In this document: piece after piece, positions 57,956 to 62,000 of the stretch
Layout: every line of letters starts with the position of its first letter
How positions within the stretch are numbered: position 1 is the stretch's first letter
Assembly (NCBI GenBank): GCA_965243205.1
Contig: CBDEUK010000001.1
Location: forward strand, 171,385-235,384
Direction: 5' to 3'
Source of the DNA: Gammaproteobacteria bacterium
GTDB lineage: Bacteria; Pseudomonadota; Gammaproteobacteria; Eutrophobiales; Eutrophobiaceae
Length of the DNA: 64,000 bases
Program-made: the position numbers and the translations under genes
The notes under the pieces: generated by a model
Databases searched by the model: none
The model's input: only the letters and a program-made list of their open reading frames with translations
What the model was told of the DNA's origin: nothing

Positions 57956-59077
57956 ATGAGACTAAAAATACCTAGTAAAATCAATTATTTACTATTTTCA
58001 CTCTTATTCTCGTCTACATCTCCAATTAAGGCTGACTATCTAGAGGAAAATGTCTCGCCTGGGCATGCAACTATGCAGGAATGGTTGTTACCCAAAACAC
58101 CACCTCATCCAGAAGATAACAAACCAACGGCCGCAAGGATTGAGCTGGGTAAAATGCTCTTTTTTGATAAACGATTGAGCGGTAACGGGGATATGTCATG
58201 TGCTACTTGCCATAACCCTGTACTTGGTTGGTCTGATGGTTTGCCAACTGCTAAGGGGTTCAATGATGAAGTACTTGAAAGAGCTAGCCCAACTGTTATC
58301 AATAGCGCATACAACTCAATACAAATGTGGGATGGCCGGAATAAGTCATTGGAAGAACAAGCGCTCGGACCTATCACAAGTAAAACTGAAATGAACATGG
58401 AAATAGCAAAATTAATTAATTGGTTAAATGGAAATCAAAACTACGTAAACGCATTCCAAAAAGCTTATCCAAACAGAGAAATAAACATTCAAACAGTTGC
58501 TATGGCTATAGCATCATTTGAAAGAACCATCATTAGTAATAATTCAGCTTTTGATTTTTGGGTTAAAGGCGATAAGAAAGCTATGACGAAACAGCAAGTA
58601 CAAGGATTTAAAGTATTTCTTGATCCGAACAAAGGCAACTGCGCTGCTTGTCATCTTGCACCCAATTTTACAGATGATGGATTTCATAATATTGGTTTGC
58701 AATCTTTTGCAGAAGAAAACCCAGATTTAGGTCGTTATGAACAAAAACCAGTAAAACTGATGAAAGGAGCATTCAAAACTCCCACTCTAAGAAACATCGC
58801 CTTAACAGCACCTTATTTTCATGACGGTTCTGCGAAAAATTTAGAAGAAGTCATTGATCATTATATAGAAGGTGGAATTACAAAAAGTAACCTGTCACCT
58901 AATATGAAAACACTTTCGATAAACGATGAAGAAAAACAGGCTTTAATCGCTTTTTTACAAGCATTAACTACCAAACAGGAATCAATAGCATTGCCTCATC
59001 TTCCAGAAGACCATGTTATAGATAAAAACACAACCATGCATAGTTCTATTACTAACAACATCAAAAAAGGTAAATAA
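57956..59077 (+). CDS. Di-haem cytochrome c peroxidase (CCP/MauG family)
   Basis: Two CxxCH sites (CATCHN; CAACHL) and a signal peptide from the internal MRLKIP. The longest ORF starts at 57941. Confidence 0.85.
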   Translation: MRLKIPSKINYLLFSLLFSSTSPIKADYLEENVSPGHATMQEWLLPKTPPHPEDNKPTAARIELGKMLFFDKRLSGNGDMSCATCHNPVLGWSDGLPTAKGFNDEVLERASPTVINSAYNSIQMWDGRNKSLEEQALGPITSKTEMNMEIAKLINWLNGNQNYVNAFQKAYPNREINIQTVAMAIASFERTIISNNSAFDFWVKGDKKAMTKQQVQGFKVFLDPNKGNCAACHLAPNFTDDGFHNIGLQSFAEENPDLGRYEQKPVKLMKGAFKTPTLRNIALTAPYFHDGSAKNLEEVIDHYIEGGITKSNLSPNMKTLSINDEEKQALIAFLQALTTKQESIALPHLPEDHVIDKNTTMHSSITNNIKKGK

Positions 59078-59126
59078 TCTTGATAAAAGATAACTCTTAA
59101 ATGATACACATATAGGAATTTTAATT

Positions 59127-59450
59127 ATGAACACATTGGAAAAGATATACATAACGGCAGCTGTGTTTCTGCTTTGTAATCAATACGTATTAGCTGAAGA
59201 ATATGAAGTTGGTCAATTAAATAAAGCTTTCACAACAGAATCATTGACGATAAAAAAAGGCGACACTATAAGCTTTGTTAATCATGATGATTTTTTTCAC
59301 AATATATTTAGCTTATCAGATACAGCAAGTTTTGATTTAGGCTCTTATCCAAAAGGTGAAGCGAAATCTTATACATTCGATACTGCAGGAGAAGTCGTTA
59401 TTGAATGTGCCATTCATCCAGATATGAAGCTAAAGATTACTGTCGAGTAA
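59127..59450 (+). CDS. Type-1 copper cupredoxin (amicyanin/pseudoazurin-like)
   Basis: 107 aa with a signal peptide and ligand set His (VNHDDFFHN) ... ECAIHPDM (C-x2-H-x2-M, as in amicyanin). Confidence 0.7.
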   Translation: MNTLEKIYITAAVFLLCNQYVLAEEYEVGQLNKAFTTESLTIKKGDTISFVNHDDFFHNIFSLSDTASFDLGSYPKGEAKSYTFDTAGEVVIECAIHPDMKLKITVE

Positions 59451-59457
59451 TCAAACC

Positions 59458-59880
59458 ATGAAAACTTTATTAATTCTTCTTACTTTGTCTATAAGTTGTT
59501 GGCCTTTAGTGGTTAACAGCGAACTCTATGCTATTACAGAAAGTAATTCATTCAACACGAATAAAGTGGAAATGATAAAAGATATAAAAAAAGTTCATAT
59601 TAAATCTGGTTTAGAAATAGGAAAAAATATATATACAGTTCGTTGTGCAATTTGCCATGGAGAAAACGGTGAAGGTGATGGCAAAATGACCAAGATAATT
59701 TATGACCCATCACCAGCAAACCTTACAACCAGCACATTAACGGACGAAGATATGCAACTAATTATTCATGAAGGTGGTGAAGCTGTTGGACGCTCATATC
59801 ATATGCCGCCTTGGAAAGATGAATTATCTAAGTCAGAAATATTCAGTGTTATGAACTATATAAAAGCATTAAGACAATGA
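59458..59880 (+). CDS. Mono-haem class I cytochrome c
   Basis: 140 aa with a signal peptide, CAICHG and a downstream Met (YHMPPW). Confidence 0.8.
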
Positions 59881-62000
59881 ATAATAAATTTCCACATCAT
59901 TTTTTTAAAAATATAAGTATCCGTAAAAAACTTATTTTTTCATTCGGCATCTGCGCCTCTATCATTATTGTGATAGGCACATTATCTATATGGTCTTTAC
60001 ATCGTGTTGAATCGCATATCTTTACAGTAGCGAATGATTTTATTCCTGCGAAGGATCTTGCTAACAAAACTAAAAGACAAGTGATTCATGCTAATAAAGC
60101 CTTAAGTTTTTATATATTAACCAATAAAGAAATGTATCGAAAACAAGTCGATACTTTAGTAAAAGACATAAAAAAATCTATACAAATATTGTCTAAACTC
60201 CAAACAAATGCAGGCCAAACGGAGTCATTATTAATTTCATTAAGCAAAGATATAGAGGCGTTTGATAAATACAAATCATTAGTATTTGAGATAAAAGAAA
60301 ACAAATTAAATAATATGCCAGGTCTTAAATTTGCAGACAAATTAATATTTCCAATAAACAATGAAATTATTGGGATATTAAATGAAATTACTAGTCATAA
60401 ATATTCAGATTCAAAATTATATACATCAATTATGAATCTTAATAAGATTTGGTACGATATATTTTACGATATCAATAATTACCTTGCATATCGTGATGAA
60501 AATTTTAATGATGAATTTTCAAGAGATCTGAAAAACGCGCGTGCAGAAATAGACAGTTTGCTAAAACAGAATTTATTGCAATTAGATTCTTATGATATCC
60601 AAAATAATTTAGGTAGAATTTTAAAATTACAAAACACATTAGAAAAATATATTGAAAGCTTAGTGGGCATACATAGTGGAGAAGCATGGAGAAAAGATGC
60701 CTATTTAATTCGAACTAAAATTGGCCCTTTGTTAGAATCTATTGTTGACAAGTTAGATAATATTAAAAATATATATTCAGAAGCAGCTGAATCAAAAATT
60801 AATGAGCTTTTAAAACTATCAGCAGCCACTAAAAAGATAACTTTTACCACCCTTATCTTGGCTGTATTACTTGGGTCTTTTTTGACCTTGATTGTCATCA
60901 AATCAATAATGATTAAATTAAACATGGCAACCAATGCAATGAAAGATATTGCTGAAAAAGGAAACTTAAATCAAACATTAGATGATTCTGGAAAAGATGA
61001 ATTATCTAATTTAGGAAGTTCATTTAATCAATTTGTAGAAAAGATATCGAATGTCATAAATTTAGTTAATTTATCATCGACTAATTTAGCTCATGAAGCG
61101 GATGAAATGAAAAAAATTAGTCAGAGTGCAAAAAGTACTGTCGTGCAACAACAGTCACAAATCTCTGAAGTGGCTGAGTCCGTACAAGAAATGTCAAGCA
61201 CTATGGAGGATATTTCTCATAATGCTAGTTTAGCGGCAGACGCTGCAAAGAAAGCGAATGAATTTACTATCAATGGTCAAGATGTGGTAACAGAATCTAT
61301 TAGTTCAATTAATAATCTAGCAACCGATGTTGAAACAACAGGCTTGGCAATAGAAAAGCTAGATAGTGAAATCAAAGATATTGGAAGCATACTTTCAGTT
61401 ATCAAAGACATAACCGAACAAACTAATTTACTCGCTTTAAATGCAGCAATAGAGGCTGCACGTGCTGGAGAAATGGGTAGAGGGTTCGCAGTTGTTGCTG
61501 ATGAAGTCAGGACATTATCACAACGTACACAAAGCGAAACTCTAGATATTCAAGTTAAAATAGAACGATTACAAGCAGAAGCTCAAACTTCGGTCAATGC
61601 TATTGAAAAAGGTAAAAAAACAGTAGAACACAGTGTTGAGCTTGCTTCTTCTGCAGAAGAAGCATTAAGTTCGATTGCTCAATCTGTTGATACCATTTCT
61701 GAAATGAACCTAAAAATCGCCGATTCTGTTCGTACACAAAGTCATAATTCAACATCTATTAATAATAATATGTTATCAATTAATCAAATTGCGAATGAAA
61801 CAGCTAATACAGTTTCTACAGCCAGTAACTCTAATCATGAGTTAAGCCTTATGGCAAGACAACTTCGAGGCATGGTTGAACAATTCTTATTAAATGATAT
61901 TGATACTCAAAATTCTAGTGAAGTGGAATCTTCGAATAATAATGAAGCAGAAAAAGACTCAAGTTCTGATTCTGAATGTATTGATGATGTTTTATTTTAA
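59877..62000 (+). CDS. Methyl-accepting chemotaxis protein (periplasmic helical sensor, HAMP, MCP signalling domain)
   Basis: 707 aa with two TM helices flanking a ~290-aa periplasmic domain. The highly conserved MCP core is [38 protein letters not shown]. It overlaps the cytochrome c stop (ATGA). Confidence 0.9.

Follow-up and report, generated by a model that had tools for sequence, protein, structure and literature searches.

A chemoreceptor gene recurrently linked to a periplasmic di-haem enzyme, cupredoxin and cytochrome c, with a possible role in oxidant or redox taxis

In a stretch of 64,000 nucleotides from a gammaproteobacterium of the family Eutrophobiaceae (GenBank assembly GCA_965243205.1, contig CBDEUK010000001.1, positions 171,385 to 235,384 of the forward strand; this whole stretch is called the window below), a gene encoding a methyl-accepting chemotaxis protein (MCP) directly follows three genes encoding a di-haem enzyme, a cupredoxin and a cytochrome c. 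This arrangement raises the question of whether the receptor merely lies beside a periplasmic redox operon or is functionally tied to it, as a preliminary description of the locus had proposed. The four genes are the following.

57956-59077, + strand: di-haem enzyme gene, 373 amino acids (aa), Pfam CCP_MauG PF03150, E 6e-61
59127-59450, + strand: cupredoxin gene, 107 aa, Pfam Copper-bind PF00127, E 2.7e-8
59458-59880, + strand: cytochrome c gene, 140 aa, Pfam Cytochrom_C, E 4.2e-9, also Cytochrome_CBB3
59877-62000, + strand: MCP gene, 707 aa, Pfam MCPsignal, E 6.5e-40, together with HAMP and 4HB_MCP_1

Two independently seeded sets of related loci were analyzed for the position of MCP genes. 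The genome set was obtained by scanning enzyme alignment A1 against one genome per GTDB species (L004-L083, plus L001-L003) and its open reading frames (ORFs) were searched with the seed proteins, ORF calling in related loci being mechanical, while the metagenome set resulted from scanning cupredoxin alignment A3 against metagenome contigs (L089-L168). Among the genome loci with a cupredoxin gene beside the enzyme gene, an MCP gene was directly adjacent in 20 of 26, compared with only 5 of the 56 loci where the enzyme gene had no cupredoxin gene at its side (Fisher p about 1e-9, shared ancestry not being corrected for). Within those five, the contigs of L017 and L028 end before the cupredoxin position and L024 carries the MCP gene between enzyme and cupredoxin. 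An adjacent MCP gene was also observed in 56 of the 80 metagenome loci. Of these loci, 29 extend at least 1.8 kb beyond the module in both directions; the enzyme was present in every one, 24 had an adjacent MCP gene and one more carried it at a distance of 584 bp. The position of the MCP gene varied among loci (upstream, downstream, divergent, or between enzyme and cupredoxin), and 56 of 58 MCPs in the metagenome set shared the strand of the module. Carriers included Gammaproteobacteria (Pleionea, Catenovulum, Oleispira, Cellvibrionaceae and Gynuella), Betaproteobacteria (Rhizobacter, Piscinibacter, Undibacterium and Ferrovum) as well as one alphaproteobacterium, Campylobacterota and Acidobacteria. 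Altogether, the four-part arrangement was seen in more than a hundred bacterial loci that are unrelated to one another. The evidence for a conserved linkage of the MCP to the three-protein periplasmic redox set, beyond chance, is very strong, and this recurrent adjacency supports the functional tie that had been proposed from the window alone.

The first two junctions of the four-gene cluster in the window have gaps of 49 bp and 7 bp, and at the third (-4 bp) the MCP start codon overlaps the cytochrome c stop codon (ATGA at 59877-59880). No terminator-like site was detected on the + strand inside the cluster and promoter-like matches were found at background level (35 seen, 31.3 ± 5.5 expected). 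Based on this overlap, the short gaps, the lack of an internal terminator and the background-level promoter matches, the four genes are probably transcribed together as one operon. Sec-type signal peptides were recognized in the translations at the start of the enzyme, the cupredoxin and the cytochrome c. The preliminary description had given the same four gene identities, which the Pfam matches confirmed, as well as the ATGA overlap and co-transcription, the former being present exactly as described and the latter supported as probable. One further feature precedes the operon.

57478..57955: AT-rich intergenic region of 480 bp upstream of the enzyme gene

This region presumably holds the operon promoter. 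Sigma-70-like sites on its + strand were weak only (57797-57826 and 57859-57888, 9/12 each), and no RNA element with an Rfam match was found in the 480-bp leader.

The enzyme belongs to the bacterial cytochrome c peroxidase (bCCP)/MauG superfamily, with a PF03150 score of 205.9 bits against a cutoff of 25.6. Three of its sites are located as follows.

58199-58213, + strand: haem motif CxxCH, C82-x2-C85-H86, invariant in homologues
58640-58654, + strand: haem motif CxxCH, C229-x2-C232-H233, invariant in homologues
58862-58864, + strand: Tyr303, at the axial-ligand position of the second haem

The inter-haem W125 and the distal residues Q135, P139 and E145 have counterparts in 2c1u and did not vary among 30 homologues. 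Tyr303, which was invariant among the 30 homologues and in all module loci, aligns with the Met of the canonical cytochrome c peroxidases (CCPs) 2c1u, 3o5c, 1nml and 3hq7, as well as with residue 294 of MauG (3l4m and related entries) and the corresponding Tyr of MbnH (6e1c). In canonical CCPs the electron-transfer haem has His/Met ligation (Met275 in Pseudomonas aeruginosa numbering). The distal His of 2c1u ('GHGWQ'), a residue that binds the peroxidatic haem of activatable peroxidases in their resting form, is replaced by Phe ('KGFNDE') in the window enzyme, and this position is occupied by F, V, H, A or S across the subfamily. Over the whole length the best PDB matches were canonical di-haem peroxidases (2c1u, E 4e-56), while the C-terminal ligand segment was closest to MbnH (6e1c, E 2.2e-12). 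The highest NCBIfam scores were obtained for MauG (TIGR03791, 302.6 bits, cutoff 443.85) and MbnH (TIGR04039, 238.3 bits, cutoff 362.85), both of them below the cutoff. Genes for methylamine dehydrogenase (MADH; mauA/mauB) were found neither in the window nor in the Pfam-annotated related loci, and there was no MbnP gene, the neighbour of the enzyme being the 107-aa cupredoxin.

Two more familiar identities were rejected accordingly: a canonical CCP, since Tyr303 replaces the Met ligand and Phe the distal His, and a remnant methylamine (mau) cluster or MbnH/MbnP pair, since the scores fall below the equivalog cutoffs and MADH and MbnP genes are missing. On sequence grounds, the enzyme is best placed as a superfamily member of an uncharacterised Tyr-ligated clade that is neither a canonical CCP nor, given the sub-cutoff scores and the absence of MADH and MbnP genes, an orthologue of MauG or MbnH. 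The preliminary designation as a di-haem peroxidase of the MauG/CCP family was thus correct for the family, but the MauG/MbnH-type Tyr ligand does not fit a canonical peroxidase, and with Tyr in place of the Met ligand simple H2O2 detoxification is not assured. The bis-Fe(IV) chemistry of MauG rests on Tyr-His haem ligation, and BthA, a Tyr-ligated protein whose role is not known, forms bis-Fe(IV) with peroxidase activity retained (PMC6405878). MbnH turns a Trp of the copper protein MbnP into kynurenine (PMC11951088). The axial-ligand position exhibited Tyr in the module enzymes, Met in their canonical relatives at control loci and Cys in one Campylobacterota clade (L030, L032, L033, L034 with ORF 7944-9017, and L036). 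Cys at this position may represent a third ligation type in the superfamily.

The type-1 copper ligands H58, C94, H97 and M100 of the cupredoxin were invariant in about 20-29 homologues, and its ligand loop C94-x2-H97-x2-M100 is of the short amicyanin type. Its PF00127 match reached 34.6 bits (cutoff 21.2) and its best, weak NCBIfam match was amicyanin (TIGR02657, 28.7 bits, below the cutoff of 110.2), while no conserved Trp was present in the homologue alignment of the family. The protein is classified as a secreted type-1 blue-copper protein of the ordinary kind. The cytochrome c is a secreted class-I protein (Cytochrom_C match of 38 bits, cutoff 21.3) with a single haem motif.

59644-59658, + strand: single CxxCH of the cytochrome c, C63-A-I-C66-H67

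Its Met ligand is probably M116. Related loci mostly encode a di-haem cytochrome of about 227 aa in place of the mono-haem protein of the window. Both the amicyanin-like loop (C-x2-H-x2-M) and the mono-haem nature of the cytochrome had already been recognized in the preliminary description.

The receptor, of which the exact protein exists in public data as P0121, combines well-supported signalling domains (MCPsignal 137.2 bits, cutoff 34.6; HAMP 37.2 bits, cutoff 25) with a large periplasmic sensor. Hydrophobic segments at about aa 15-33 (the first transmembrane helix, TM1, being taken as 15-37) and 323-341 enclose about 285 periplasmic residues, in agreement with the approximately 290 aa estimated before.

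59988..60842, + strand: sensor domain, aa 38-322, periplasmic
60930..61790, + strand: HAMP (aa 352-391, PF00672, E 3.7e-9) and signalling domain (aa 455-638, PF00015, E 6.5e-40), cytoplasmic

The sensor was modelled with a pLDDT of 90.7 as an all-helical domain of eight helices, two long and six short, with the long first and last helices running on into the transmembrane helices. Its closest folds were McpS, PilJ and TorS (Foldseek probability 1.00). The match to the ligand-binding domain of McpS had a TM-score of 0.60-0.67 by target length and 0.44-0.49 by query length at 13-15% sequence identity. The Pfam HBM model gave no match at E <= 0.1, and sensor-type Pfam matches were limited to a partial 4HB_MCP_1 match covering profile positions 1-95 of 181 (30.8 bits) and weak TarH and CHASE3 hits. 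An internal repeat gave only a weak signal (hhalign probability 18%), and a word-index protein search with two fragments of the sensor domain returned no matches. The sensor contains no CxxCH, the sole Cys within aa 1-345 is C26 in TM1, and no invariant His, Met or Cys was present in the sensor alignment. A haem- or metal-binding sensor was rejected on the strength of these three observations. A Cache-type amino-acid sensor was likewise rejected because the confident model is all-helical, so that the well-known amino-acid-binding fold which the preliminary description had held against its own proposal did not emerge. Of the two sensor types it had offered, the 4HB/HBM-like helical fold stood and the haem-binding one did not. 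According to this model, the sensor is an HBM/TorS-like helical domain without a cofactor motif.

Comparison of the adjacent MCPs revealed at least four sensor families (A-D) without detectable mutual similarity. Family A, whose periplasmic part spans about 150 residues and matches no sensor model in Pfam, was the commonest, and some of its members carry a cytoplasmic PAS domain (L004 and L006). It comprises receptors at L001:5359-6981, L005:660-2279 and about 40 further loci with the motifs ALIAAD...IR..AI and KKN-x-D, and judging from these sequences it may be an unmodelled sensor family, possibly specific to the module. Family B, of about 290 residues, includes the window receptor, L007/P0122, L085/P0123, L084/P0136 and L034 of a metagenome-assembled Campylobacterota genome, all beside the module. 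The L034 sensor is homologous to that of the window (E 1e-6 to 9e-9), and in this locus enzyme, cupredoxin and cytochromes adjoin the MCP gene. Motifs of family B in the window sensor are ALxFYxL, N146-x-P, P159, YLAxR206 and IH-x-G-x2-W271-R272-x-D274-x2-L-I-R, of which W271-R-x-D is nearly invariant. Family C also has about 290 residues and is betaproteobacterial, while family D contains a 4HB_MCP_1 domain. The enzymes paired with family A and with family B receptors were equally close to the window enzyme (64-66% identity), which indicates that the receptor was exchanged while the adjacency was kept.

All-against-all clustering of the flanking ORFs yielded no conserved partners other than cytochrome/CCP, MCP and MsrP, with generic histidine kinases in a minority of loci. 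The msrP gene lies inside many of the homologous clusters (NCBIfam equivalog, 412.5 bits, cutoff 207) together with an msrQ-like gene, and msrPQ is absent from the window. MsrPQ is described as repairing periplasmic Met oxidised by HOCl or chlorite (PMC12525009; PMC12503329). Its presence within the clusters of relatives ties the module to envelope oxidant stress. An oxidant sensor that is Met-rich or Cys-based and repaired by MsrP was considered and found unsupported, the Met content of the sensors being 1-4% across families and conserved redox residues being absent.

The reading that we favour, tentatively and with doubt slightly outweighing confidence, is that a dedicated receptor couples motility to the peroxide or redox chemistry of the module. 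The di-haem enzyme keeps the peroxide-activating pocket of the bCCP/MauG superfamily and, because its second haem appears to be Tyr/His-ligated and a distal His is missing, should need no reductive activation to react with H2O2, a reaction expected to take it to a high-valent state like that of MauG. Cupredoxin and cytochrome c would carry the electrons by which the resting enzyme is restored, and the periplasmic sensor of the MCP would bias swimming in response to gradients of peroxide-type oxidants or of the redox state that these create. Since the sensor lacks a cofactor motif, the signal would probably be read indirectly, either as a small molecule or through state-dependent binding of cupredoxin or cytochrome. 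That H2O2 is the oxidant, which way the electrons run and what kind of signal is read are inferences. The scheme would be compatible with cells being repelled by oxidants as well as with their being drawn to H2O2 as an electron acceptor. Respiration with H2O2 through E. coli Ccp was reportedly described by Khademian and Imlay in 2017 (cited in PMC6682613).

Several observations weigh against a coupling of this kind. Family A sensors exhibited no conserved periplasmic Cys, Met, His or Trp (or Tyr) that could serve direct oxidant sensing. Family B was also found in a large clade with a fixed dapA-bamC-metallo-beta-lactamase-MCP-purL context devoid of redox genes, so the fold is not specific to this function. 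Neither an FNR/ANR box, which is typical of ccp genes, nor an OxyR-type clue was found in 57478-57955. The CCP homologues of Campylobacter jejuni, including DocA, give no H2O2 resistance (PMC3156733), and MauG and MbnH modify proteins and are not detoxifying peroxidases (PMC6405878; PMC11951088). Examples of the dapA-bamC-metallo-beta-lactamase-MCP-purL order in other Gammaproteobacteria are L086:5001-7025, L087:5001-7061 and L088:5001-7025, and an Oxidored_molyb gene directly follows purL in two of these three loci.

A more specific form of the favoured coupling, by analogy only and in our estimation rather unlikely, would have the sensor bind no free small molecule but dock the cupredoxin or cytochrome c encoded in the same operon, depending on redox state or on peroxide. 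Protein-docking sensors of comparable type are found in the pairs TorS-TorT, LytS-XylFII and QseE-QseG.

The first alternative reverses the flow of electrons. The enzyme would oxidise a periplasmic reductant and pass the electrons via cupredoxin and cytochrome c to the respiratory chain, with the MCP attracting cells to the substrate, as in the chain from methylamine dehydrogenase through amicyanin to cytochrome c551i and in catabolic operons that contain chemoreceptor genes. The amicyanin-type loop of the cupredoxin and its best, though weak, match to amicyanin are in line with this alternative, as is the pathway-like constancy with which the three redox genes occur together. Neither the window nor the annotated related loci contain a dehydrogenase or quinoprotein gene, however, and the conserved distal Gln/Pro/Glu pocket is of the peroxide-activating kind. 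Small organic acids are the ligands of McpS and similar known HBM sensors (descriptions of 2yfa and 2yfb), but the four unrelated sensor families would all need one common substrate. Similarly, some CCP-fold proteins are not peroxidases, including hydrazine synthase gamma, which appeared among the matches of the enzyme, while the association with msrPQ suggests oxidant damage, not catabolism. Taken together, we regard such a substrate-oxidising branch as improbable.

MauG converts Trp to tryptophan tryptophylquinone in the precursor of MADH, and in a second alternative the window enzyme would act as a maturase that uses H2O2 to modify a neighbouring protein (cupredoxin, cytochrome c or the sensor of the MCP), which would thereby create or tune the signal. 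Tyr303 corresponds to Tyr294 of MauG and to the MbnH Tyr, and the ligand segment is closest to MbnH (6e1c, E 2.2e-12), but the enzyme scores below the equivalog cutoffs of both and neither a MADH nor an MbnP gene is present. Both characterised Tyr enzymes modify a partner encoded nearby, which in the case of MbnH is a copper protein (PMC11951088), whereas in the cupredoxin of the window the type-1 site is complete and of the ordinary sort, and a conserved Trp is absent. The lack of H2O2 protection by C. jejuni DocA would agree with a maturase. On the side of the sensor, the nearly invariant W271-R-x-D of family B offers a possible target, but W271 is conserved in family B receptors without the module as well, and family A sensors lack conserved periplasmic Trp, Tyr, Cys, Met and His. 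A maturase appears distinctly unlikely to us.

Finally, an ordinary nutrient MCP that merely sits beside the electron-transfer operon or uses its promoter is very improbable and strongly disfavoured by the comparative data. In its favour, motile aquatic bacteria have many MCP genes, the family B fold also occurs where no redox genes adjoin it, and the C. jejuni receptor Tlp10 (DocB) reportedly binds ordinary metabolites. Against it, the MCP adjoins about 80% of complete module loci in two independent samples but only about 4-9% of control CCP loci, and the adjacency is found in several phyla, with differing gene orders and with four families of sensor. The MCP is also co-directional with the module in 56 of 58 cases and overlaps the cytochrome gene in the window.

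Three genes follow the MCP gene in the window on the same strand.

62071-62898, + strand: AraC-type regulator (DUF6597 and HTH_18)
62977-63441, + strand: AhpD/CMD-family gene
63454-63846, + strand: secreted cupin gene

The preliminary description had taken the AraC and AhpD-like genes as divergent and as part of an oxidative-stress theme. Their orientation was wrongly given, both being on the + strand like the MCP gene, and the theme thus rests on an incorrect orientation and on genes that are not conserved, the msrPQ genes of relatives being the better link. A gap of 70 bp without a predicted terminator separates the MCP and AraC genes. Counterparts of AraC, AhpD and cupin were absent from the genome loci L001-L083, and a single AhpD-like match was seen in metagenome locus L149. 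Membership of these genes in the unit was rejected, co-directional though they are, because they are absent from the related genome loci. Since they are not conserved with the module in L001-L083, they probably form a separate unit by this comparison, into which read-through may occur.

Additional features were noted elsewhere in the window. The region upstream of the redox operon contains a strong hairpin at 57495-57533 (A8-GGCCGC...GCGGCC-U5, flanked by an A-run and a U-run; -22.8 kcal/mol, z = -3.0; no Rfam match) that resembles a bidirectional terminator. It is placed between the start of an eamA-type transporter gene (- strand, 57477) and the best promoter-like site of the region (- strand, 57672->57645, 11/12). 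The hairpin could act as an attenuator in the eamA leader or insulate eamA from the redox operon. The sole perfect FNR/CRP-type palindrome of the 64-kb window is located at 60888-60901 (TTGATTGTCATCAA), within the MCP coding sequence at the codons of the second transmembrane helix, and overlaps promoter-like matches at 60882-60910 and 60892-60919. Its position inside the MCP gene is probably coincidental. Seven genes on the + strand at 50318-56594 are of the cfa-type lipid modification kind (FAD amine-oxidase-like, DUF1365, cyclopropane-fatty-acyl-phospholipid synthase (CMAS), chalcone-isomerase-like, MFS_2 transporter, DUF3833 lipoprotein-like and SDR), and the only Rfam family found in the window was a small signal recognition particle RNA at 47987-48083 on the - strand (RF00169, 68 bits).

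Chemoreceptors embedded in functional operons are of a known kind, while the module of enzyme, cupredoxin, cytochrome and MCP has apparently remained undescribed, full-text literature searches having yielded no account of it. To our knowledge, no periplasmic receptor for peroxide or redox taxis has been established, and the signals of most bacterial chemoreceptors are not known. The module that emerges from the present analysis is widespread, has four components and is often accompanied by msrPQ, and its receptor was kept through changes of gene order and replacement of the whole sensor, about the strongest genomic case for functional coupling short of experiments. It offers a concrete candidate for oxidant- or redox-linked taxis as well as a large uncharacterised clade of Tyr-ligated, MauG/MbnH-like di-haem enzymes with evident partner proteins. 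If the sensor did dock a protein of the operon, the chain of enzyme, cupredoxin and cytochrome would be the front end of protein-mediated periplasmic peroxide or redox taxis, and this would be a new sensing principle for MCPs that was independently recruited by at least four sensor families.

Among known systems, the only precedent we found for this arrangement is the adjacency of docA and docB in C. jejuni. The CCP homologue docA (Cj0020c) is located immediately upstream of docB (Cj0019c), which encodes the MCP Tlp10, and both genes are required for chick colonisation (PMC3156733). Compared by description only, docAB resembles the window in having a di-haem CCP-family gene directly 5' of an MCP gene, and differs in that descriptions of docAB mention neither a cupredoxin nor a cytochrome as partner and neither propose nor demonstrate that DocA and DocB work together. 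Enzymes of the Campylobacterota clade, moreover, have Cys at the axial position where the window enzyme has Tyr. The module may explain why these two colonisation genes are neighbours.

Canonical CCPs (P. aeruginosa; Paracoccus pantotrophus, 2c1u; Nitrosomonas europaea, 1iqc; Shewanella, 3o5c) are the closest PDB sequences to the window enzyme (E about 1e-56) and share with it both haem-binding CxxCH motifs as well as the Trp between the haems and the Gln/Pro/Glu set on the distal side. Their physiological electron donors are small cupredoxins (pseudoazurin/azurin) and c-type cytochromes. In contrast to canonical CCPs, the donor genes of the window lie in the same operon, an MCP is attached, the axial ligand is Tyr303 and the distal residue is Phe. 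The enzyme shares with MauG, MbnH and BthA a Tyr/His-ligated second haem and a first haem of the five-coordinate type without a distal His, and with MauG and MbnH a neighbouring gene for a copper protein, which is amicyanin in mau clusters and MbnP in the case of MbnH. Unlike in these two systems, MADH and MbnP genes are missing and the partner is a type-1 cupredoxin of the ordinary kind in which no Trp is conserved. We know of no MCP associated with the MauG, MbnH or BthA systems.

As to the receptor, its all-helical sensor domain is shared with the HBM sensor McpS of Pseudomonas putida as well as with TorS and PilJ, which gave the best whole-domain structural matches, although eight helices are predicted (two long and six short) as opposed to the six of HBM, where two long and four short helices build a stack of two four-helix bundles. 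The MsrPQ system is represented by genes in the clusters of many relatives and not in the window itself. Aer and Tsr are energy-taxis receptors, and Aer uses an FAD-PAS domain. Helicobacter pylori TlpD is a chemoreceptor that senses HOCl (PMC6715182). The oxidant or redox taxis that TlpD, Aer and Tsr bring about is the same output as that proposed here for the window receptor, but TlpD and Aer sense in the cytoplasm (through a Zn-Cys CZB domain and FAD-PAS, respectively), whereas the sensor of the window is periplasmic, free of any recognizable cofactor and linked to the genes of a redox enzyme and its dedicated partners.

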